36,558 nucleotides of DNA, taken from an uncultured Candidatus Bathyarchaeia archaeon. GTDB lineage: Archaea > Thermoproteota > Bathyarchaeia > TCS64. Under the pieces are notes generated by a model. It did no database searches. It was given only the letters and a program-made list of their open reading frames with translations, and was not told the origin of the DNA. The DNA is taken from assembly GCA_964499305.1 (NCBI GenBank), contig CAZCKR010000002.1, forward strand, positions 5,054 through 41,611, given 5' to 3'. Below are positions 4,072 through 35,622 of the stretch, in pieces (positions within the stretch are counted from its first letter, which is position 1; the number at the start of each line of letters is the position of its first letter). Both the position numbers and the translations under genes were made by a program.

Positions 4072-5388
4072 ATGTACGGAGACCTTTCATCCGAAGTCGT
4101 TCACTGCCCAAACTGTAACGAGGACGTACCCAAGACGCTGTACTGCCTGAACTGCGGGTACCCCCTCTACAAGATAGAGCAGGAAGAGAAGGCCGAAGTT
4201 CAACCGGAAGCAGAGCCCGAGGCACTCGAAGTCGTAATCCCTGAGGAGCCGGAGGTCGATATGAGTATTGAGATTGAACAACCAGAGGAGACTTTCGTAT
4301 TAGAGGAACCAGAGCATGAGACGAAGCCAGAACCCGAGCTAGAACCAGAGCTTGCTGAACCTGAGCCAGATCTAGAACCGGAACCTGAGCCAGAGCTTGA
4401 GCCAGAACCCGAGCCGGAACTAGAACCAGATATCGAAATCGAGACGACGATAAAAGTAGAGGAAGTGGTGGCTGAGGAGGAGGCTCCGCCTGAGCAAGTG
4501 AAGCCAGAAATCCACGTCGAAAAACTTGAGGAGGAACCCATGGAGCCGACCGTGGAGGAAGAACCAGTAGAAGCCGAGCCTATGCTGGACATGGAGACCG
4601 AGGCAGACATAGTTATGGACGAGGAAGAGCTCGAAATGGAGCCAGAGCCTGAGGAAGAGGCCATCGAAGAGCCCCATGAGGAGGAGCTAGAGGTGGAGGA
4701 ACCCGTCGTAGAGGAACCAGAAATAGAGGAGGAGGCTCCCCTGCCTGAGGTCGACGAGGAGTCAGTTATTATGGAACCCGAGGAACCGGAAAAGATTGTT
4801 GAGTTCATGGAAGAGGAACCGGAGTTGATGGAAGCTATCAGACTTGAATTCGCGCCAGACCCCCTGACCAAAGAGGTCATGGACAACCTTGCCAAGAACA
4901 TCACCCTAAAGATTAGGCTCGTACGTCTGCTACGAGACGGCCAGGTGAAGGAGGAGACTTTCAAGAAGCTCTTCGACAGCTACGTCGAGCAGGGGCGGAT
5001 CTGGGTCAGCCGCCGGGACGACACCGTGAGACGGTTCAAGGCAGACATCGAGAGGATGGATGAGTCCCTGATAACCGCGCGTAAGGACTTTGAGCTGCTT
5101 GAGATCAGGAGGAATATTGGTGACGCCGACGATGAGGAGTATAAGGTTAAGGCGCCCGCCTATAATTGGGACATGGAGCACCTTGAGAGTGAGATAAAGA
5201 ACCGTAAGGGCGGCGTCCTTTATGTAGCGAACCTCAGGAAGCTTGTGCCCGAGGAGGAGATCGTCGAGCTTGAGAAGATGGCTGACACGGACTACGGCGA
5301 ATTGGACAAGTTAGAGGACATAACGGCTGACACGATAGCGAAGATGAAGGAGACCCTCGCGGAGTCCCTCAACATCCTCAACTCATAG
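4072..5388 (+). CDS. Zinc-ribbon protein with long acidic Glu/Pro repeat linker and C-terminal coiled-coil domain
   Basis: CPNC-x12-CLNC zinc ribbon at aa 12-28. About 220 aa of E/P-rich low complexity follow. The C-terminal 170 aa are helical, with ELLEIRRNIGDADDEEYKVK reminiscent of CdvA-type coiled coils (weak, by eye). Confidence 0.7.
   Translation: MYGDLSSEVVHCPNCNEDVPKTLYCLNCGYPLYKIEQEEKAEVQPEAEPEALEVVIPEEPEVDMSIEIEQPEETFVLEEPEHETKPEPELEPELAEPEPDLEPEPEPELEPEPEPELEPDIEIETTIKVEEVVAEEEAPPEQVKPEIHVEKLEEEPMEPTVEEEPVEAEPMLDMETEADIVMDEEELEMEPEPEEEAIEEPHEEELEVEEPVVEEPEIEEEAPLPEVDEESVIMEPEEPEKIVEFMEEEPELMEAIRLEFAPDPLTKEVMDNLAKNITLKIRLVRLLRDGQVKEETFKKLFDSYVEQGRIWVSRRDDTVRRFKADIERMDESLITARKDFELLEIRRNIGDADDEEYKVKAPAYNWDMEHLESEIKNRKGGVLYVANLRKLVPEEEIVELEKMADTDYGELDKLEDITADTIAKMKETLAESLNILNS
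4177..4837 (+). repeat. Low-complexity acidic (PEPELE-type) coding repeat region
   Basis: Degenerate tandem GAnCCnGAG-type repeats, clearest at 4318-4438 (EPELEPELAEPEPDLEPEPEPELEPEPEPELEPD). They create the spurious Ser/Gly-rich antisense ORF 4200..4964. Confidence 0.8.
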
Positions 5389-17272: not shown

Positions 17273-17317
17273 TTCGTGGAACAGTATTCCATATTAGAGT
17301 GTGAGTGTAATCAGGCG
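17273..17317 (-). promoter_or_regulatory. 45-nt conserved promoter/operator motif upstream of the GT2 gene (copy 1)
   Basis: TTCGTGGAACAGTATTCCATATTAGAGTGTGAGTGTAATCAGGCG matches 23042-23086 at 42 of 45 positions. On the minus strand it reads TAATAT (TATA-like), followed by the dyad TGGAA-N5-TTCCA. Confidence 0.6.
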
Positions 17318-17377
17318 TAACAACTAGGACGGTATGCGCCGCTTCTCTTTGGTTCAGATAAAAACGTTGGGGTCCGA

Positions 17378-23041: not shown

Positions 23042-23086
23042 TTCGTGGAACAGTATTCCATATTAGATTGTGAGTGTAGTCACGCG
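23042..23086 (-). promoter_or_regulatory. 45-nt conserved promoter/operator motif upstream of the CapF-like gene (copy 2)
   Basis: TTCGTGGAACAGTATTCCATATTAGATTGTGAGTGTAGTCACGCG lies 30 nt upstream of the ATG at 23012. It matches copy 1 at 17273-17317. Confidence 0.6.
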
Positions 23087-23170
23087 CGACAATCATCGCC
23101 TGTCGGTTTGTGAATTTGTGTTGTGGCTGCTTCGACAGGATGGGTCTGCCGCGCCTTTGCTGTAAACTTC

Positions 23171-23821
23171 TTAATGTATCTGGGTGTCGTAGTCAACACT
23201 GCCGAAGACGGTTTCCAGGTGCTCCACTATGTCTGTCAGGTGTTTATCGACGGCTTCCACCTCGGCGCCGTTGGGGCACCACGCGAAGTACAGGGGATTC
23301 TGTGTGTCGGGGGCGATGGAGGTTCTCCGCGCCGGGCCGTAGAGGACGCTGGCCAGCACGCCTTCGTCGTCTCTGAGGACTACGTCGTTCTTCTTGAGGC
23401 TCTGTTCCTCACCGTTGAGCTTGGTGTAGGGCTCGCCCTCGTCGGCTAGGTCGAATACAGGGTCGCCTTTGACGGCTTCTTGGTCGTGGCCCGAGGTGAG
23501 TATCCTGTTGCCCAGCTCCGCCATGAACATGGCGTCTACGTGGACGGACACCCGTGGGAACTTCCTCCCGGCCTTCATGGACTTTATCTGGTACTCTATG
23601 GGGTAGGTCTTTTCCCATTTGCCGTAGTAGTCGTTGTAGCTCTGTATCACGGAGTCTTCCCGGGGGTCGGGGTAGGTGTCTCTTATTTGTTTCTCTAGAG
23701 CTCTTTTTCTGTCCTCCAGCCTCTGGTCTTGTTTGGTGTTTTTCTGGTTGTATACCTTTAGGCTCCCGAACACTGCTCTGGGGTAGAGCATCTTTAGCTC
23801 GGGTCTGACAGTTATCTTCAT
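23171..23821 (-). CDS. B3/B4 tRNA-binding-domain protein (PheRS beta-subunit-related)
   Basis: 216 aa. The overall pattern (..SVHVDAMFMAELGNRILTSGHD..VVLRDDEGVLASVLYGPARRT..) matches stand-alone B3_4 domain proteins (by eye). Confidence 0.7.
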   Translation of the reverse strand: MKITVRPELKMLYPRAVFGSLKVYNQKNTKQDQRLEDRKRALEKQIRDTYPDPREDSVIQSYNDYYGKWEKTYPIEYQIKSMKAGRKFPRVSVHVDAMFMAELGNRILTSGHDQEAVKGDPVFDLADEGEPYTKLNGEEQSLKKNDVVLRDDEGVLASVLYGPARRTSIAPDTQNPLYFAWCPNGAEVEAVDKHLTDIVEHLETVFGSVDYDTQIH

Positions 23822-23910: not shown

Positions 23911-24245
23911 AACGTTACGTGGATCGACGACTTTGCTTTTCCCTTATAGTTGGTTACTTGCTATAAGCGTTTTTTCGGGTACGCGGCGGCGCCGTGGATC
24001 GACGACTCGGTGTTTCCCTTGTAATTGGTTACTTATTATAAGCGTTTTTTCCGGTAACTGATGTATCGGTTAAGTGTTTGAAACGGGTTTTACCGATATG
24101 TTCGGGCGGTGGGCGGTGTTCTGGCCTGGTTTTTTCCTTGTGGTGGTTGCTTAAGCTGTTTATGGTGCGCCTGTTTAGTTGGTTTTAGCTGTTGTCTCCT
24201 TGTTTGCTTTGCGCCGGTTCGCTTTAAGATTCCAGGTTACGTGGG
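23911..24245 (+). repeat. Structured non-coding module, copy A (two tandem hairpin plus T-run units and a conserved tail)
   Basis: Collinear similarity to 27541-27864. Hairpins at 23942-23966 and 24017-24041, each followed by CG and T6. A GTTAC core recurs. Confidence 0.8.
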
Positions 24246-24450
24246 AGAATTAGTAGTTCTGTGTGAGGTCTAATGTTCCATGTGCGGCGTCTCCGATGGT
24301 GCTCTGCACGCCTACGATCTTTGGGTTGTCTGGCTGCCTCGTAGGCGGTCTGGCTTGTATCTGGCTCGCTCGGCCGAGCCTGTTTCGGTTAGGCTCTTCC
24401 TCTCCACCTGTGTTTGCTCTGTAGCCTGTGTCCGACAGGGGTAGAAGACT

Positions 24451-25288: not shown

Positions 25289-25452
25289 CTAAGCCTCGAG
25301 GCGCCTCAGGTCTCGCCTGAATAAGTCGTCGTAGTAATCGCAGATGCCCTGCACTACTGCTTCCTTGACGCTGGCGACTATTCCCTGCGCTTCAGCTCCC
25401 GAATCATCCGGGCATGCTCGCCTCTTATGACGCACGACGTTGACGATGCCAT
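25289..25452 (-). pseudogene. Frameshifted ribbon-helix-helix (CopG-like) gene, paralog of 32623..32811
   Basis: ATG at 25452. The first 23 codons are identical to the intact paralog, then a TAG follows after 24 codons. A 1-nt shift restores IVASVKEAVVQGICDYYDDLFRRDLRRLEA, which parallels the paralog. Confidence 0.6.
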
Positions 25453-25589
25453 CCTTCTCCGTCAAGGGGAGCCCTTCTCGAGGCGTCTAAGAACTGGCTT
25501 TGGCGGACATTGTGATTCTGGGATTAACTGCTGGTGGAGTATGTGGGAGGCCATATTGATTCGATATATTTATGGACGTGTTGGTCTAT

Positions 25590-26814: not shown

Positions 26815-27015
26815 TCATAAAGTTACTTTTGACATGTCTCCGAGGATGAGCTTGTGGCCTCTTGGGAGGTTGTTTTCGTGGTTGAGGATGGTAACGTTCC
26901 GGCCTATTAGGCTGTCAGTTATTTTCTTTCCACAGTCGATTCGTGCGCCGCTCATCACGATGCTGTTCTCGATCTCGGTGTTCTGTATGGTGGTGGGGTC
27001 TAGGATGCGCGCTCG
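26815..27015 (-). pseudogene. 3' remnant of a sugar-phosphate nucleotidyltransferase (left-handed beta-helix C-terminus)
   Basis: ILDPTTIQNTEIENSIVMSGARIDCGKKITDSLIGRNVTILNHENNLPRGHKLILGDMSKVTL parallels the C-terminus encoded at 35663..35938. The N-terminal domain is absent. Confidence 0.65.
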
Positions 27016-27313: not shown

Positions 27314-27341
27314 GGGCCTACCGCGTCTCGATTTGTCTGAG

Positions 27342-27447
27342 TTCACTTCGACTTTATAGTAGTTGGACACGGTGTGTGCTGTGGGCCAGAAGGGGTTCAT
27401 TGTGGCGATTTGTTTGATGTCTACTGGTTGTAGCCCTGTTTCGAGTT
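27342..27447 (-). pseudogene. Internal remnant of a Nudix hydrolase gene
   Basis: About 105 nt collinear with 35363-35468 (roughly 80% identical by eye). Translates ETGLQPVDIKQIATMNPFWPTAHTVSNYYKVEVNSDK, versus ETGLQPTNITQISTMSHIWPTAHTVTTYFKVEVNSDK in the intact gene. Confidence 0.6.
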
Positions 27448-27540
27448 GTGGTTTTGGATGGCTTGTGCTGTCTGTATGGCTTGGGTGACTGTCTGCGACC
27501 TCTGTTCTGGGGGGTTTCTGGATTCTTTGGTCTACCTACC

Positions 27541-27864
27541 CGTTACGATAGTCGACGACTTGGCGTTTCCCTTATCGTTGGTTACTTACGATAAGCGTTT
27601 TTTTGGGTACGCGGGCGGCGCCATGATTCAACGACTTTGCTTTTCCCTTATAATTGGTTACTTATTATAAGCGTTTTTCCGGTAACCGATGTATCAATTA
27701 AGCGTTAGAAACAGCTATTTACCGATATAGGCGCGTTTAAGCAGTTTTCCGGCCTGGCCTCTTCACCTATTTTAGGCGTTTTATTGGACTTTTAGTTATT
27801 TTTAGCTGTTGTCTCCGGGTTTGTTTTTCACAGGTTCGCTTGAGGGGTTCCAAGTTACCTGGGA
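27541..27864 (+). repeat. Structured non-coding module, copy B
   Basis: Collinear with 23911-24245. Hairpins at 27571-27595 (CTTATCG/CGATAAG) and 27647-27671 (CTTATAAT/ATTATAAG), with the TGGTTACTT loop and T7/T5 runs. Confidence 0.8.
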
Positions 27865-27967
27865 TGAGTTTGAAACACCCTCTTTCATGCTAGCCGGTGT
27901 TGCCTTGTTTGATGATGGCGATGGTGCCTGTTCGAGTTCTCTTCTGTAGTGCGCTCATCGGTGAGTT

Positions 27968-28240
27968 TTATGCGGGGTTTGCTGCGGGTCTATCGAGAAG
28001 TGTGTCCACCAGGTCTCTTTTTTCCGTCGCTAGATCGACGAGGGTCTTGTAGAGGCCTCTCTTCGAGGCGTCCCATATCTCTAGGGCGACGAGCTCCCCT
28101 GATTGGTCTAGGCCCATGAGCACGTCGCCGTCGAGGAGCTTTTCGTCCGCGATCTCGCCTTCCCTGAGTTTCACCGAGAGTATGTCGGCTCTAGAGTCGT
28201 ATCGTATTATGGGATCCAGCGTCCACTCCTCCTTCGTCAT
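27968..28240 (-). CDS. DUF2283-family protein
   Basis: 90 aa. YDSRADILSVKLREGEIADEKLLDGDVLMGLDQSGELVALEIWDASKR is the characteristic DUF2283 pattern. Confidence 0.75.
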   Translation of the reverse strand: MTKEEWTLDPIIRYDSRADILSVKLREGEIADEKLLDGDVLMGLDQSGELVALEIWDASKRGLYKTLVDLATEKRDLVDTLLDRPAANPA

Positions 28241-28281
28241 TCTAATAGGATTATTTTCATGTAATAGTTCTATTGTACAAG

Positions 28282-28536
28282 TTATTTGTAGATGGATTTT
28301 CTTGGGCCTACATCTAGGAAGACGACCAGATGAAGAGAATCATCTATTATGTAGATTATTCTGTACTCGCCTATTCTCCAACGCCAATAACCTTGGAGTT
28401 CGCCTCTCAGTTTAACGCCATACGACGGATTGGCGATTATCTCATCTATGGCTCTCAGGGTCCTCTCTTTAACCTCGTCAGGCTGTTTCCTTAGTTCCCT
28501 TAAGAACTTCTTTGTGAGGGCAGGCCTATAATCCAT
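28282..28536 (-). CDS. relE: RelE/ParE-family toxin
   Basis: 84 aa. KKFLRELRKQPDEVKERTLRAIDEIIANP...GYWRWRIGEYRIIYIIDD..LVVFLDVGPRKSIY is the typical RelE pattern. Confidence 0.8.
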   Translation of the reverse strand: MDYRPALTKKFLRELRKQPDEVKERTLRAIDEIIANPSYGVKLRGELQGYWRWRIGEYRIIYIIDDSLHLVVFLDVGPRKSIYK

Positions 28537-28548
28537 CGGGCTCTCACT

Positions 28549-28749
28549 TTATAGTTTCTTCCTGATGTCGTCGCTGTTGTGTAGTGTGATATAATCTCCT
28601 TTTTGGTACTCTTCCTCGGCTGTTTTTATTCTCTCCAGCCCCTCTGTGTTCGCCAGCTCTTCTAGCGTTGCCAGAACCTCTTCGACCCTAACTAGTCCTT
28701 CTTGAAGCTCCTTTAGAAGAGCCGTGGGGATGTTTATGTACTCTGTCAA
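28549..28749 (-). CDS. Putative antitoxin partnered with RelE
   Basis: 66-aa helical ORF lying 12 nt upstream of the RelE gene. Assigned from position and size; no strong motif. Confidence 0.6.
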   Translation of the reverse strand: MTEYINIPTALLKELQEGLVRVEEVLATLEELANTEGLERIKTAEEEYQKGDYITLHNSDDIRKKL

Positions 28750-28848
28750 CTTTTGCGTCCATCATCCCTTCCTTATTGTACCTTATTTAATGTTTTTACT
28801 TCAGCCGCGGAGGATAGTAGGCTCAGCTAACGGTGGATAAGTTTGAAG

Positions 28849-29022
28849 ATGAAGGCGGTCCTCGACGCAGCCGCGACAAGGATTCTGCTGCACCTCTCCA
28901 AGATCGGGGACATCAAGATACGGCTACACAGGCCAATGGAGGAGAAGGCCACTACGCCACCCTCAGAGGCGGTGCAAGCCCATCCAGCGAAACAGGAAGC
29001 CTCCCTACTTGTAGGGAGGTAG
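28849..29022 (+). CDS. Candidate 57-aa ORF (below the track threshold), possibly a truncated HTH gene
   Basis: ATG at 28849, TAG at 29020-29022. Reads MKAVLDAAATRILLHLSKIGDIKIRL.... Sits in the otherwise unexplained 274-nt gap between two TA loci. Confidence 0.3.
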   Translation: MKAVLDAAATRILLHLSKIGDIKIRLHRPMEEKATTPPSEAVQAHPAKQEASLLVGR

Positions 29023-29023
29023 T

Positions 29024-29452
29024 TCACTCTGGTATCTGTAGGTTTCTGGGATCGATTCTTTCTATGCCCGAGATTTTGTCGTAAGCTTGATCTGTTGAGA
29101 GTATTGTGTGGTCGGGGACATGTGGTGTTAGGGAGGTTGCTGCGTAGATGGCGTCGAATATGGATTTGAGGTCATAGCTTGTCATGAGGTCGAGGGCGGA
29201 TAGAAGGATCTCTCGCGTTGGGTCTATGTATGTGATGTTCTCCAGGGTGGTTAGATTAGCGGCGTTGCCTAGTATGGTGGGTATTGGTGCGATGTCGCTG
29301 AAGACGTAGTATAGCTCATGGATTATGTCTGTTGAGGCCTGTATGTCTTGGAGGGTGTTGGTCTTTATGGCGTTGAAGATTTTTTCGGCTGTGGGTTTGA
29401 GCCAGTCTTCTTTTTTCAGGTATGCGATAAATAGGTCAGATTCGATTAGCAT
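29024..29452 (-). CDS. vapC: PIN-domain toxin (VapC-like)
   Basis: MLIESDLFIAYL (N-terminal acidic residue) and SIFDAIYAATS...ILSTDQAY. Overlaps the upstream AbrB gene by 17 nt. Confidence 0.8.
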   Translation of the reverse strand: MLIESDLFIAYLKKEDWLKPTAEKIFNAIKTNTLQDIQASTDIIHELYYVFSDIAPIPTILGNAANLTTLENITYIDPTREILLSALDLMTSYDLKSIFDAIYAATSLTPHVPDHTILSTDQAYDKISGIERIDPRNLQIPE

Positions 29453-29657
29453 TTTGTGTTTCCCTCTTTGCTTTTTCTTCTCCCATTTGCTTGAGTTCCT
29501 GCGTTGTGTGTTGGGTGTCTATTGGCGTGATCTCTTTAGGTATGGGTATCAGTAGGTAGTTTTGTCCTCGGGGGATGATTATCGCTTTTTCTGCTTTGAA
29601 GCCTAGTTCTTTTGGGAGGTATATGCGACGCTGGGAGTCAATGGAGACGATGGTCAT
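29436..29657 (-). CDS. vapB: AbrB-type antitoxin (VapB-like)
   Basis: VSIDSQRRIYLPKELGFKAEKAIIIP is a swapped-hairpin motif. 73 aa. Confidence 0.8.
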   Translation of the reverse strand: MTIVSIDSQRRIYLPKELGFKAEKAIIIPRGQNYLLIPIPKEITPIDTQHTTQELKQMGEEKAKRETQNANRI

Positions 29658-29661
29658 TTTT

Positions 29662-29696
29662 TACCAAATAGCAGGGTTGTTTGGTAGAATATATAG
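29662..29696 (-). promoter_or_regulatory. Promoter plus operator dyad of the vapBC locus
   Basis: The minus strand reads CTATATATTC (TATA-like), then TACCAAA-N11-TTTGGTA (29662-29686), ending 5 nt before the ATG at 29657. Confidence 0.5.
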
Positions 29697-30134
29697 TTTT
29701 ATGGTTAAAGTGTATTCTTGTGGTGTCTGCGTCCCAGCGTCTGGTTTGTTGTGTAAGGTACGCGGTACTGTATGAGGCGTGATTTCTGGTCCTTGAGCCG
29801 TTCAGGGTGGGTGTAGAAGCGTGAGATAGAACGCCGGGTTTTTTCTTGAGATTTTGAGTGAGAAAGTTATTATTTTATTGTGACGCTTTTCGCCAGGTTC
29901 CGTGGCTTATCCGGGTCTGCTCCGCGTCTACCCCCAGCCCGAACGCCTCGGCGACTCTGGCGTCCTCCTCGGAGAAGCGTCCGGGTCTTTACAAAGACGT
30001 TTATACGTTAATGTCGCTGGGAGAGTTAATATCATTGCTTGCATCATATAGCGGATCTTAATATTTATGAGGTTTCGTGCTGACTTGCTGCCCTAGAATG
30101 TAAGTGAAAAAAGGGATAATTAGGGTTTAAAGTG

Positions 30135-32138
30135 TTACTTCAGATACTTGTCGAACCATCTGAGAATGTGTCTTAGCCTGGCGGTGCGGTGGCTGGGCTT
30201 CCCCATGCGGCTGAGTCCATGGGGCTCGTTGTAGAACCTGACGAACTCGACCTCCTTCTTTAACCTCTTGAGGGCGACGAAGAGCTTCTCTCCTTCGGGT
30301 ATAGGGCATCTGTAGTCGTTCTCGGAGTGGATGATGAGCAGCGGCGTCTCGATGTCCTTGATGTACGTCAGCGGTGACCTGTCAAGGTACTGCTCTGGGA
30401 TGTCCCAGGGATCCAGACCACTCCCGACGCCTATCCTACCCCAGCCCATATCGCTGAGTGCAACCTGGCTGTACCAGCTGGCGACCGACCTCATCGTAAC
30501 TGCAGCCTTGAATCTTTTTGTGTGTGTGACGGTCCAGTTGGTCATGAAGCCGCCGAAGCTGCCGCCGGCGACGCCCAGCCGCTCTGGGTCAACGTAGCCA
30601 TAGTTTTCGAGGACGTGGTCCAAGGCCTCCATGAGATCTTGGAAGTCCCTACTCCCCCAGTTACCCTCTACGATGCCAGCGAACTCCTCGCCGTAACCGA
30701 TGCTGTCTCTGGGATTCGTATAGACGACAACGTAGCCGTTCCTAGCGAGGAGTTGGAACTCGTGCTCGGCTGAGTCTAGCTTGAATCCATAGGCTCCATG
30801 GGGACCACCGTGGATCTCCAGGACCAATGGGTACTTCTCCCCTTCCTTGTAGCCGTTGGGCTTGACTATCCACCCCTGCACCTTGACGCCATCGCTGGCG
30901 GTGAACCAGAACTCCTCCGGGGGGCTCACCTCCCAAGTCGCCATGATCTTGTCATGGACGCTTGTAAGGCGCTTCGTACTTTCCTCGTCTCGTATCCAGA
31001 CCTCGTTGGGCCAGAGAGCGTCGGTGGCGCAGAGGGCGAATAGGGACCCGTCCCCGCTGGAGCTGAAGCTGGAGACGGTTATTTTCCCCTCGGTCACAGG
31101 CTTGACCTTTCCGTTATGCGCGGTCACCTTGTATATCTGGGTTGTGCCGTTATTGGAGGCCCTGAAGTAAATTTCCCCGGAGTCGCCGCTCCAGAGCAGG
31201 CTCGATCTGTAAGCTCCAACCGTCCTATCGAAGTCGGAGGTCAGGTTCCTAGCCTCACCGCCGTCAGGTGGGATCACCCAGATATCGGTGTTGCCGTATC
31301 CTATCGCCACAGGGTCGGGGGGAATCCTACCTGCGTAGGCCAGGAGACCTCCGGCAGGGGACCATGAGACAGTGCTGATGATGGACTTCTCGTCCGTGAC
31401 CTTCCTGGGCTCACCGCCATCGGCTTTTATGATGTATATATCCTTCAGTCTCGTTAGGTCGCTCTCCTCCATGTTGGCGACGAACGCGACCTCGGTGCCG
31501 TCGGAAGACCAGGATGATGCTGAGACGTCGTAGGGTCCGCTTGTGATCTGAGCTGGTGTGCCACCCTTGGAGCTAACTGTGAACAGGTGGACCCTGGTAT
31601 AGGGAAAAAAGGACTCCCCGTCATACTTGTACCTGAGCTTGCTTATCCAGAGGATCTCAGGGTCTGTCTCCTCAGGGGTCTCTGTATCCTCCTCTATCCT
31701 GGATTGTAGGAGTATTTTCGAGCCGTCGGGGGATAGCTGGAAGCCGCGGATGCCGTGCTCGGCCTCGACGAGGAGCCTTGCCTCGCCTCCTTCGAGGGGC
31801 ATGGACCAGATGCGGGTCTTCCTGTTCTCCTTCTCCCCTGCCGTGAGCCTGTTCGAGTTGAAGTAAACGGTCTTCCCGTCGGGTGACCATCGGGGGTGAG
31901 TGTCCGAGTCCTCTCCGGAGGTGAACTGCCTGGGATCGCCGCCGTCAGTGGGGACAATCCAGATGTGGGTGTCATACGTGTCCTCCTCGATCTTGGTGAT
32001 CCTCCTGACGAAGAGAACGTTCCTCCCGTCGGGGGATATCTGAGTGTCATCCAGTGGGGTTCCGTGAATGAGGGGATCGACATCGTATTTCTTCAGTTTT
32101 AGCATATTATTACCGTGATTATATACTTCTCTGGACAC
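30135..32138 (-). CDS. S9-family serine peptidase (acylaminoacyl-peptidase/prolyl oligopeptidase-like): beta-propeller plus alpha/beta hydrolase
   Basis: Repeated propeller-blade motifs of the SPDG..xxF type. Nucleophile elbow GGSFGGFM, later ENDYRCP (Asp) and EPHGL (His). GTG at 32138; the ATG at 32105 (MLKLKKYDV) is an equally plausible start. Confidence 0.9.
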   Translation of the reverse strand: MSREVYNHGNNMLKLKKYDVDPLIHGTPLDDTQISPDGRNVLFVRRITKIEEDTYDTHIWIVPTDGGDPRQFTSGEDSDTHPRWSPDGKTVYFNSNRLTAGEKENRKTRIWSMPLEGGEARLLVEAEHGIRGFQLSPDGSKILLQSRIEEDTETPEETDPEILWISKLRYKYDGESFFPYTRVHLFTVSSKGGTPAQITSGPYDVSASSWSSDGTEVAFVANMEESDLTRLKDIYIIKADGGEPRKVTDEKSIISTVSWSPAGGLLAYAGRIPPDPVAIGYGNTDIWVIPPDGGEARNLTSDFDRTVGAYRSSLLWSGDSGEIYFRASNNGTTQIYKVTAHNGKVKPVTEGKITVSSFSSSGDGSLFALCATDALWPNEVWIRDEESTKRLTSVHDKIMATWEVSPPEEFWFTASDGVKVQGWIVKPNGYKEGEKYPLVLEIHGGPHGAYGFKLDSAEHEFQLLARNGYVVVYTNPRDSIGYGEEFAGIVEGNWGSRDFQDLMEALDHVLENYGYVDPERLGVAGGSFGGFMTNWTVTHTKRFKAAVTMRSVASWYSQVALSDMGWGRIGVGSGLDPWDIPEQYLDRSPLTYIKDIETPLLIIHSENDYRCPIPEGEKLFVALKRLKKEVEFVRFYNEPHGLSRMGKPSHRTARLRHILRWFDKYLK

Positions 32139-32434
32139 ATAAATCTAGTATTAAAAAACTTCGCACCTCTCTTAACCAACTCTTATCATTAGATATTACT
32201 CTCGAAAAAGAAAAAAGAGATTTAGGACTTATTGTATATTGGATCTCGACTTTTTTCAGGGAAATTGAAAAAACATATTGGTTCCTTGCCGGCGCCATCG
32301 CGATGGGCGTGTTGATTTGCATCGCTGAACCTCACAGTCAATATGATTGGAGAAAAGTGATGCTAATAAATGTGGTTGAGATTAGTAGGAAGAATGTGAT
32401 TAAGGGTAGATGTAGGGTATTGTGTTCTTAATAA

Positions 32435-32584
32435 TTTAGGTGTTCTACCCTCAGCGACGAGCTCATAAAGAAGATAGAGAGGCGCAGGGGGCTGGCGAAG
32501 AGATCCAGCTACATCGAGCACCTCATCGAGCGAGGGTTTGAAACCCAGAAAGGAGAGAAGGTGGAGACCCGTAGACTCAGCTGA
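32435..32584 (+). pseudogene. Start-less ribbon-helix-helix remnant
   Basis: Open frame reading ..CSTLSDELIKKIERRRGLAKRSSYIEHLIERGFE.. (RHH pattern). It is bounded upstream by TAA and has no ATG/GTG/TTG before the fold. Confidence 0.35.
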
Positions 32585-32622
32585 CTCTCTTAGTGCCCTG
32601 AGGCAATGATTTCGTTAGTCGT

Positions 32623-32811
32623 TTAATTGCTTGGGTCTCTCGATCCCTCTACTTCTAGTCGTTTCAGGTCGAGCTGTAGTATGGTGTCGTAGTAGGTGTA
32701 GATGCCCTGTACGATAGCTTGCTTGAAGCTGGTGACTGTGCCTCTGCGCTTCAGCTCCCGAATCATCCGGGCATGCTCGCCTCTTATGACGCACGACGTT
32801 GACGATGCCAT
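32623..32811 (-). CDS. Ribbon-helix-helix (CopG/Arc-like) protein, orphan
   Basis: 62 aa. TSCVIRGEHARMIRELKRRGTVTSFKQAIVQGIYTYY fits beta-strand, helix, helix. No adjacent toxin gene. Confidence 0.65.
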   Translation of the reverse strand: MASSTSCVIRGEHARMIRELKRRGTVTSFKQAIVQGIYTYYDTILQLDLKRLEVEGSRDPSN

Positions 32812-32989
32812 CCTTCTCCTTCAAGGAGAGCCCTCCTCGAGGCGTCTAAGAATCAACCAACTTTTCCCTTTTATGCTTCGAGAGGCTTTACCCTCGGTCA
32901 CGTGCCTCACCTTGTCTGGTTTTGGGTTCCGGATGGGCTTTATGAGTCATATGAAGGTTCAGTCGCTACCGAGAGTCAAGTAAAAGTGA

Positions 32990-35244: not shown

Positions 35245-35622
35245 TTATCTGAAGAGACCCGTGTTCTTGATCATTTCAACTAGGTAGGGGTGTAGATCGT
35301 CCTCCATGGTGTTGATCCATCTGTAGCCGCGGTGCTGTTCGTCTAGTTTCACTTTGTCGGAGTTTACTTCGACTTTAAAGTAGGTGGTCACGGTGTGTGC
35401 GGTGGGCCAAATGTGGGACATCGTTGATATCTGGGTGATGTTGGTTGGCTGTAGTCCTGTTTCCTCGGATAACACGCGTTTGACGGTGTCTTCAAGTTTC
35501 TCATCTTTGAAAATTCTTCCTCCGGGGGTGAACCAGAGATCTTTTCCGGGTTCGTTGTTTCTCAGCATTAATAGTAGGTTGCGCTTGTGGGTGACGAGGA
35601 GGTCTACGCAGGGTAGAGGCAT
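35245..35622 (-). CDS. Nudix hydrolase
   Basis: Nudix box GGRIFKDEKLEDTVKRVLSEETGL (Gx5Ex7REUxEExGU). 125 aa. Confidence 0.85.
   Translation of the reverse strand: MPLPCVDLLVTHKRNLLLMLRNNEPGKDLWFTPGGRIFKDEKLEDTVKRVLSEETGLQPTNITQISTMSHIWPTAHTVTTYFKVEVNSDKVKLDEQHRGYRWINTMEDDLHPYLVEMIKNTGLFR

Follow-up and report, generated by a model that had tools for sequence, protein, structure and literature searches.

A dispersed mosaic repeat with covarying hairpins and oligo-T runs at synteny breaks in Bathyarchaeia

Introduction

The closest known kind of element to the repeat described here is the REP/BIME family of enterobacteria and pseudomonads. REP/BIME sequences are many short extragenic hairpin units, several types of which stand in fixed-order mosaics with other motifs; their stems remain paired through matched changes, the number of units varies between strains, and they have been proposed to act in termination or in protecting mRNA 3' ends, as well as in recombination. 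The archaeal repeat is similar in all of these respects, with many dispersed extragenic copies per genome and distinct hairpin types in mosaics. It differs in its archaeal host, in its A/T-rich 8-bp stems with an invariant 9-nt loop, and in the oligo-T found after every unit. Moreover, its units are arranged head-to-tail rather than in alternating orientation, the stem foot (CCCTT...AAGCG) carries no GTAG or CGTC tag, the 5' half of the unit resembles the 3' end of a PCNA gene, and tails of 150-280 nt belong to the element. No RAYT-type (Y1/HUH) transposase recurs among the neighbour genes in the genome fragments analyzed.

Integron attC sites (e.g. the Vibrio VCRs) and Xer-dependent pdif sites are also repeated imperfect palindromes that keep structure over sequence, and like our repeat they lie between variable, toxin-antitoxin-rich segments that are present or absent across related genomes. 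Unlike attC, the repeat comes with no integron integrase or attI that we could find, and no R''/L''/L'/R' layout was recognised in it by eye; unlike pdif, its spacer is too long for a Xer core site. It differs from both in its multi-gene cargo in both orientations, in the many copies beside housekeeping genes, and in duplications of 85-120 nt of gene ends.

Prokaryotic MITEs, which include the archaeal SM elements of Sulfolobus and MJRE of Methanocaldococcus, offer a third comparison. They share with our repeat a non-autonomous nature, a length of 250-450 nt, an intergenic location, multiple copies, sharp ends, and insertion polymorphism. Unlike MITEs, the long-type module of our repeat has neither terminal inverted repeats nor a short target duplication (the sole pair of empty and filled sites shows a duplication of ~109 nt), and no matching parent IS was identified. 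Nor do its ends resemble those of IS200/IS605 elements or PATEs, which have different subterminal hairpins on the left and right and insert 3' of a fixed tetra- or pentanucleotide with no duplication: here the hairpins are in tandem at one end only, and there is a duplication at the insertion.

A fourth comparison is with archaeal oligo-T terminators, in which 5-6 T residues are enough for termination (PMC2253867, PMC8716108). The repeat resembles these in having T5-7 on the coding strand, right after the stop codon in the PCNA loci, and in its serial T-runs. The described terminators need no hairpin, whereas in the repeat every T-run comes after a conserved hairpin whose loop is invariant, and the repeat itself is mobile or duplicated and found in all orientations.

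Our literature searches found no description of this repeat family. Here we report the family, its anatomy, the pairing constraint on its stems, its polymorphisms, and its resemblance to the PCNA gene end.

Results

Anatomy of the modules

The window, i.e. the whole stretch of DNA that we analyzed, comprises 36,558 nt of contig CAZCKR010000002.1 from a member of the Bathyarchaeia; within it, 324 bases (27541-27864) had been flagged in a first-pass annotation as the second copy of a hairpin-bearing module. By reading the sequence and with a repeat finder, we found four units of ~75 nt in the window, termed A1, A2, B1, and B2. Each unit begins with a conserved 5' half, after which come a stem of 8 bp rich in A/T, the loop TGGTTACTT, CG, and T5-7; its text is ..TCGACGACT..TTTCC and CTTNNNN-TTGGTTACTT-NNNNNAAG, then CG and the T-run. 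The stem sequences and coordinates quoted in the first-pass annotation, including the G.T pair of A2, were all confirmed by reading the sequence. Its statement that the loop and T-runs are retained also holds, given that the loop is identical in the four units, the T-runs of A1, A2, B1, and B2 are T6, T6, T7, and T5, respectively, and both features are nearly invariant family-wide. A degenerate pattern in which the inner stem letters were left free (CCCTTN4TTGGTTACTTN5AAGCG) matches the window exactly 4 times, against 0.00 expected from 100 shuffles.

Modules A and B (~330 nt each) align end to end with 83% column identity. Their tails hold three recognizable segments. S1 has the pattern CCGGTAAC.GATGTATC..TTAAG in both modules. 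S2 reads TTAGTT..TTTTAGCTGTT and has 2 matches in the window against 0.02 expected; its core, TTTTAGCTRTT, is common to the tail types inspected. S3 is a near-palindrome, TTCCnnGTTACnTGGGA, with 2 sites in the window, each matched on both strands (4 matches against 0.39 expected). S3 forms the right boundary in 13 contexts, and position 27864 is the true end of the repeat. The motif GTTAC recurs in S1, in S3, and in some left flanks, and the loop holds TTAC; together with the invariance of the loop, this recurrence hints that the hairpin may have a protein partner.

Table 1 Features of the repeat and its surroundings in the window.
Feature	Position	Strand	Description
Module A	23913-24246	+	A1 (type 1), A2 (type 3), and long tail
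Unit A1	23913-23986	+	Stem 23943-23949 / 23961-23967, CTTATAG / CTATAAG; T6 at 23970-23975; type 1 (ATAG/CTAT)
Unit A2	23988-24061	+	Stem 24018-24025 / 24035-24042, CTTGTAAT / ATTATAAG, with one G.T; T6 at 24045-24050
Inter-module segment	24247-27540		3.3 kb: PIN and MazE/AbrB pair, two unknown small genes, HxlR-type regulator, gene remnants
Nudix gene remnant	27326-27442	-	Residues 54-92 of the Nudix protein (gene 35245-35622); tblastn 69% identity, E = 2e-16; direct repeat D4 with 35346-35463
Module B	27541-27864	+	B1 (type 2), B2 (type 3), and long tail (S1, S2, S3); aligns with module A and with 13 long-type copies that have unrelated flanks
Unit B1	27541-27614	+	5' half GTCGACGACTTGGCGTTTCC; stem 27571-27577 / 27589-27595, CTTATCG / CGATAAG; T7 at 27598-27604; type 2 (ATCG/CGAT)
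Unit B2	27617-27690	+	Stem 27647-27654 / 27664-27671, CTTATAAT / ATTATAAG; T5 at 27674-27678; type 3 (ATAA/TTAT)
Tail segment S1	27680-27730	+	CCGGTAACCGATGTATCAATTAAGCGTTAGAAAC...TTTACCGATAT; holds a decayed palindrome; conserved in long-type modules
Tail segment S2	27792-27810	+	TTAGTTATTTTTAGCTGTT; second copy at 24175-24193
Tail end S3	27848-27864	+	Near-palindrome TTCCAAGTTACCTGGGA closing the module; second site at 24230-24246

The window is cellular DNA. Its first part (1-23 kb) carries housekeeping and cell-envelope genes, and the part from 24 kb on is an island in which small toxin-antitoxin genes (PIN, MazE/AbrB, ParE, DUF2283) stand with an HxlR regulator, Nudix, and S9 peptidase genes. 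The first-pass annotation placed a Nudix gene remnant directly against the second module; the remnant is real, but ~100 nt separate it from the first unit of module B. A second remnant lies at 26894-27011, and both are copies of genes located 8 kb rightward. No tRNA was found in the window, and Rfam 15 gave 0 matches at gathering score over its whole length; around module A, with E up to 10, the sole Rfam match was a chance miRNA (E = 7.7). The exact-protein look-up of a flanking gene returned no match. A bacterial promoter and terminator scan, which is uninformative for archaea, did not flag the units, whose stems are too poor in G-C pairs.

Several other identities were tried for the sequence and rejected. 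An ORF at 27446-27670 (74 aa) and similar ORFs running through the units were judged spurious. A CRISPR-like array does not fit because the 'spacers' are conserved, and the ORB boxes of archaeal replication origins do not fit because the TTCC...GGAA spacing differs and the element is multi-copy.

A repeat family of Bathyarchaeia

The degenerate pattern, run against one genome per species, yielded 27 loci, 25 of which are family members; the other two, L013 and L017, are chance pattern matches without the flanks. Nearly all family members are in Bathyarchaeia MAGs, often on several contigs per MAG, e.g. on up to 6 contigs in CSMAG_1075. At least 120 loci were found in a metagenome scan, and none in a scan of viral contigs, so the element is no known viral feature. 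Some of the contigs that carry it are filed under bacterial MAGs.

Among the matches listed by nhmmer with a unit profile, there are 258 units and 153 arrays; by array size, the listed matches comprise 63 single, 87 double, and 7 triple arrays. The unit periods cluster at 53-58 nt and 72-78 nt, and a module consists of 1-3 units, always head-to-tail. The arrays fall into at least 36 left-flank clusters and at least 79 far-right clusters. All of them are intergenic or overlap a gene end by at most 32 nt, and they lie beside genes of many kinds (among them diphthamide synthase, NADH dehydrogenase, methyltransferases, and peptidases), PIN being the commonest neighbouring family among the matches listed.

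The ends of the long-type module are sharp in 13 unrelated contexts, on the left ~10 nt before TCGACGACT and on the right at ..AGTTACaTGGgAT. After the last T-run we found at least 5 alternative tails, which are part of the element and share motifs, indicating that the element is a mosaic. One subfamily (iv) has terminal repeats of ~35 nt that are direct, not inverted, and paralogous modules are only 75-87% identical. The repeat is a dispersed, non-coding mosaic family that, as far as the scans show, is confined to a Bathyarchaeia lineage.

Resemblance to the PCNA gene end

At 10-12 loci, a PCNA gene (...YYLAPCIGV*) runs with its end into the first unit, whose hairpin begins 9 nt past the stop codon. 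The C-terminus YYLAPCIGV is kept in 120 PCNA homologues, down to 71% identity; in more distant Bathyarchaeia, PCNA genes finish with this coding end too, but no unit comes after it. Throughout the family, the 5' half of the unit and the long spacer GGCGCCGTGGATCGACGACTyGGCnTTT share ~77% identity with the PCNA end GGCGCCGTGCATCGGCGTCTAGGCGTCT, which is equally far from the hairpin. These similarities would be explained most simply if the 3' end of PCNA, together with the downstream hairpin and T-run, was duplicated and then spread.

Pairing and covariation of the stems

The first-pass annotation took A1 and B1 for one unit that had diverged between two copies, with an A-T pair replaced by C-G. 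Comparison with the whole family leads to a different assignment. The stem types are positional: arrays of three units read ATAG/CTAT, ATCG/CGAT, and ATAA/TTAT in that order (types 1, 2, and 3; L052 and L086), arrays of two units are type 1+3 in 23 distinct cases and type 2+3 in 13, and single units are mostly type 3. A1 and B1 are thus different members of an old three-unit set. Since the types are positional, the compensatory events are old and few; we estimate about 2-3 independent events (two clear, one or two minor), inherited by many copies. Taken alone, the double change between A1 and B1 is weak evidence, with roughly p = 0.05 given 10 differences in 74 nt, and the weight of the pairing argument comes from the family-wide counts.

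For these counts we used 139 distinct units, unrestricted by the scan pattern, and a hairpin of 8+2 pairs. Among all cells, 97.6% are paired, compared to 93.0 ± 0.4% in column shuffles (0 of 500 shuffles reach the observed value) and 28-66% in slid controls. In this larger alignment the stem positions do vary and complementarity is maintained, and three stem pairs covary: pair 21/33 (AU 68, GC 66, GU 3, other 2), pair 20/34 (AU 100, CG 22, other 17), and pair 22/32 (UA 102, UG 27, CG 2, other 8). The columns of the loop, stem foot, and T-run are at least 90% conserved, and T5-7 follows every hairpin at a fixed distance of 2 nt.

An internal control is provided by S1, whose palindrome lies 15 nt downstream of the unit hairpin. 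When both are scored in one set of 21 long-type modules, pairing amounts to 100% for the unit hairpin and to 77% for the S1 palindrome, which shows no compensation. This control bears on the possibility that the unit palindrome has no function and is kept by intra-strand templated repair or template switching combined with recent copying of modules, so that the covariation would reflect linkage and a mutational mechanism. Template switching in inverted repeats creates matched double substitutions and could have done so here; only 2-3 compensatory events are needed to give three ordered types, the arms are just 10-17 nt apart and inherited together, a mismatch class of 17/139 units persists, and the stability of the hairpin is modest. 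The decay of S1 argues against a neutral palindrome, as does the better conservation of the loop, stem, and T-run relative to the unit 5' half and the tails; furthermore, at 75-87% identity between paralogues, an unconstrained 16-nt stem should hold mismatches. We consider this explanation unlikely.

The first-pass annotation had proposed selection on the hairpin itself because pairing was preserved through double substitution. The pairing kept through two-sided changes in 139 units and the loss of pairing in S1 favour that proposal. Selection on a folded strand, be it RNA or single-stranded DNA, would account for the data with the fewest assumptions; less probable alternatives are intra-strand templated repair of the palindromes and linkage in recently copied units.

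Outside the constant G.U pair, the wobble-type cells comprise ~47 G.U on the T-run strand versus ~12 on the other strand (C.A-type). This excess mildly favours folding of the T-run strand, the events not being independent. Both strands were also folded in silico, which had been suggested as a check; the predicted folding energies of whole units are no better than those of shuffles on either strand (z from -0.7 to +0.9).

Hybrid stems and what is read

The main mismatch class, an A.G at pair 20/34 found in 12% of units (17/139), has the form ATAG/CGAT, i.e. the 5' arm of type 1 with the 3' arm of type 2; the reciprocal hybrid, ATCG/CTAT, was seen once. These ATAG/CGAT hybrids are best explained as the product expected of an unequal crossover that deletes between units 1 and 2, and their share of ~13% would fit crossovers distributed over the length of the unit.

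Single arrays can hold all three stem types, and so does this window, which argues that pairing is read rather than sequence. A dimeric protein that reads the sequence of duplex DNA is for this reason a poor explanation of the stems. Such a protein (a transcription factor, chromatin or partition protein), with the units as an array of sites, would account for an 8-bp symmetric pair of half-sites at constant spacing, for the regular periods of 55 or 75 bp, for the second, 17-bp near-palindrome (S3) at the module end, and for the lack of orientation preference relative to genes. Nevertheless, a dimer able to accept three half-site sequences in one array or genome would not force matched changes in the arms, binding to a duplex leaves unexplained why G.T exceeds C.A on one strand, and an asymmetric invariant 9-nt spacer followed by a strand-specific T-run is unlike a symmetric operator. 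This makes a duplex binding site very improbable.

An even more doubtful reading is that the units or modules are genes for small or structured non-coding RNAs, or that they carry a minus-strand promoter in which the A-run would serve as BRE and TTATAA as TATA box. A short plus-strand RNA would have its end at the T-run, transcription could pass through the A-rich strand, which is without T-runs, and in our own reading AAAAAACGCTTATAA on the minus strand resembles a BRE plus TATA. On the other hand, apart from the chance miRNA no Rfam family was matched even at E = 10, and RNAalifold on 21 long-type modules gave no supported structure (one compensatory pair, covariation term -1.8). The promoter is incompatible with the ATCG stem type, which destroys the TATA-like sequence, and minus-strand left neighbours are not enriched. 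A leaderless ORF start (GGAAATG, minus strand) was also discarded, its ATG being neither conserved nor, in L066, in frame. Finally, a C/D-box sRNA was dismissed because there is no conservation of the CTGATG that S1 has in copy A.

Rearrangements at the modules

The first-pass annotation placed the left edge of copy B at a rearrangement breakpoint and suggested checking whether copies elsewhere also sit at such points. That edge is a true synteny breakpoint. L057 is 98% identical to the window over 27551-32600 and unrelated leftward, and as a group L057, L058, and L048 are 94-98% identical to the window from 27551 rightward and unrelated to the left. Elsewhere, modules mark synteny breaks, changes in unit number, and the presence or absence of toxin-antitoxin-rich segments (L043, L049, L054, L066, L008, and L083). 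The site upstream of the gene at 23171-23821 occurs in three states: two units and a tail in the window, one unit and a tail in L043, and a solo unit in L049 and L054, where the break comes right after the T-run. L005 has one unit where module B has two. In L066, L008, and L083, the module adjoins a truncated hexapeptide-repeat gene that is cut exactly where its intact homologue in the window continues (36017). The 3.3-kb segment between modules A and B is missing from the related contig L043, in which a single module joins the left flank of A to a B-like tail.

A single empty site was found, all loci having been selected for carrying a unit: L059 has a 274-nt module that L115 is without, and at the flanks of this module the neighbouring gene's 3' end is duplicated over ~109 nt. 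In 12 loci, a duplicate of 85-120 nt of the left-hand gene end lies to the right of the module and its cargo, e.g. PCNA-unit-[HEPN+MNT]-PCNA'-three units in L052 and L112, and S9 peptidase-module-[DprA-like, antitoxin, PIN]-S9' in L142. Simple homologous recombination does not fully explain these gene-end duplications.

Such rearrangements raise the possibility that the units are single-strand DNA or cruciform recombination sites, read by an enzyme encoded elsewhere (a tyrosine recombinase as for attC and Xer/pdif, or an HUH/Y1 enzyme as for REP/RAYT and IS200/IS605), with the modules as cassette joints. A conserved loop and foot around a covarying stem is the pattern of hairpins read by proteins, and the TTAC of the loop returns as GTTAC in S1, S3, and some left flanks. 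In addition, the modules flank variable segments rich in PIN, MazE, ParE, HEPN/MNT, and DUF2283 genes, the cargo between modules in the window is absent from L043, and breakpoints occur at unit edges, e.g. just past the T-run in L049 and L054.

Several observations speak against this possibility. No recombinase or transposase is consistently linked to the modules among 149 neighbour families and spot checks: no integrase, Y1, or HUH gene recurs, and no integron integrase is present among the window ORFs scanned or the recurrent neighbour families. The only transposases found are IS5-family copies, located ~170 nt beyond one tail type, and IS66-family fragments; both are separate insertions. 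By eye, neither an R'' (RYYYAAC) nor an R' (GTTRRRY) box of attC was seen in the unit, and a GTTAAGT in S1 is found in copy A only and is not conserved. The cargo between modules is multi-gene, with genes on both strands, and insertions come with gene-end duplications rather than clean site-to-site joints. Lastly, the share of hybrid stems fits evenly spread crossovers rather than a fixed cleavage point, and head-to-tail units are unlike the inverted pairs of REPINs. Dedicated recombination sites thus seem a rather unlikely explanation.

Discussion

The reading that we favour, with a probability of roughly 0.45, combines a REP/BIME-like repeat, a strand-specific hairpin/oligo-T element, and passive recombination. 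The hairpin would form on the T-run strand, and the hairpin with its oligo-T would stop transcription or form the 3' end of transcripts. A terminator is the likeliest of these roles, as suggested by the position of the hairpin 9 nt after the PCNA stop codon. The many near-identical copies would then be substrates for unequal and ectopic recombination, which would change the number of units, make hybrid stems, and insert or delete toxin-antitoxin-rich segments beside the modules. Because no enzyme encoded by the element was found, its copying was probably passive or driven in trans.

Termination alone would leave the constraint on the stem and the invariant loop unexplained, given that in archaea it works without a hairpin. 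The orientation of the arrays relative to neighbouring ORFs is near random, which counts against a purely gene-serving role: among the matches listed, 67 arrays share the strand of their left neighbour and 47 lie opposite to it (20 versus 12 when counted once per context, p = 0.2), and for the right neighbour, with one count per flank cluster, the figures are 38 same-strand and 35 opposite-strand cases. In the window, the gene to the left of each module is on the minus strand, so neither module can be terminating an upstream plus-strand gene there.

A bolder prediction, which we regard as quite unlikely, is that the hairpins are the recombination sites of an unrecognised archaeal cassette-exchange system of PCNA-derived origin. 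A recombinase encoded elsewhere would read the folded hairpin and move toxin-antitoxin and accessory segments, leaving tandem units and duplicated gene ends behind. If this were true, archaea would have in these modules a system analogous in function to integron attC or pdif modules, with unrelated sites.

The Bathyarchaeia abound in sediments and are uncultured, and nearly all that is known of them comes from fragmented MAGs. A high-copy repeat located at synteny breaks helps explain why their assemblies are fragmented; it can also expose mis-binning, as with the carrier contigs filed under bacterial MAGs, and serves as a lineage marker. If the hairpin matters for termination, it bears on the contribution of RNA structure to archaeal termination, and should it prove to be a recombination site, it would reveal how archaeal toxin-antitoxin cassettes move. 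Under the combined reading favoured here, the family would be an archaeal counterpart of the bacterial REP/BIME elements, with an unusual origin in the end of a replication gene and an unusual build of ordered hairpin types, each with its oligo-T.

Element ends and neighbouring transposase genes

The long-type modules, in which repeat units are followed by a long tail, end in a 17-bp near-palindrome, TTCCwnGTTACnTGGrA, which is also found apart from these modules and could represent either a protein site or the terminus of a different element. In one subfamily, a version of about 35 nt (TTCCATGTGACAAGGATATTGAAATTCTCAATAT) forms direct repeats on both sides of the whole element. About 170 nt past one of the tail types lies a gene for an IS5-family transposase (DDE_Tnp_1 with DUF772), with the same orientation and a constant junction in most of the loci tabulated for it; L026 deviates by about 50 nt. 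At other loci, IS66-family fragments are located 38 nt away from the units.

Coordinates of the features in the window and at other genome or metagenome loci carrying the repeat (L-numbers).
Feature	Window	Other loci
Near-palindrome	24230-24246; 27848-27864	L004, L006, L016, L103, L120, L111
IS5-family transposase gene, right of units		L026, L056, L075, L102, L114, L123, L131, L139, L143
Further locus of the IS5-family/IS66-family transposase set		L096
ORFs across units	27446-27670 (+)	L117 3170-3472
MAG labelled Krumholzibacteriaceae		L006, L011, L012, L024
MAG labelled Pirellulales		L008
51-nt sequence	17273-17323; 23042-23092
~200-nt duplication	25296-25493; 32654-32852
438-aa ORF	4072-5388 (+)
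Direct repeats within it	4305-4442; 4620-4664
PCNA loci	compare 23988-24015	L007, L010, L052, L067, L082, L112
Truncated hexapeptide-repeat gene with module	counterpart 36017	L066 9189-9210, L008, L083, L133
Gene-end duplication at module insertion		L059 vs L115 (empty site); L052, L112, L142, L145, L136

Reading frames, contig assignment and other window features

Recurrence of the repeat alone accounts for the repeated appearance of ORFs that span the units (peptide ..HFPYNWLL.ISVF..). These ORFs almost certainly do not represent genes, but databases may list them as 'proteins'. The Bathyarchaeia-specific repeat, together with Bathyarchaeia-like neighbours, was also observed on contigs assigned to bacterial MAGs, probably reflecting mis-binning or contamination.

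Elsewhere in the window, a 51-nt sequence containing the palindrome GGAACAGTATTCC occurs twice (90% identity), immediately upstream of two minus-strand sugar-metabolism genes encoding a glycosyltransferase and an epimerase, for which it could be a common operator or promoter. A stretch of about 200 nt is likewise duplicated, with 109 nt at 97% identity adjoining 89 nt at only 71%; this disparity points to a recent gene-conversion event involving two small paralogues within the toxin-antitoxin island. The 438-aa ORF has a long acidic Glu/Pro/Leu-rich repeat region, with direct repeats, and no Pfam match.

Gene ends at module junctions

Together, the 5' half of each unit and the long spacer between units resemble the final ~30 nt of PCNA in Bathyarchaeia (..LAPCIGV*), and at the PCNA loci the stop codon and the first unit overlap. 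PCNA loci of greater divergence (L148-L152) do not carry the unit. Several related contigs have a hexapeptide-repeat gene that is truncated at the position corresponding to window 36017 and directly followed by a module; at this position the window has a longer gene and no module. Module insertions are accompanied by direct duplications of 85-120 nt of the adjacent gene's 3' end, each consisting of an intact copy and a decaying one. Such lengths exceed those usual for a target duplication; a Campbell-type or template-switch insertion is suggested.
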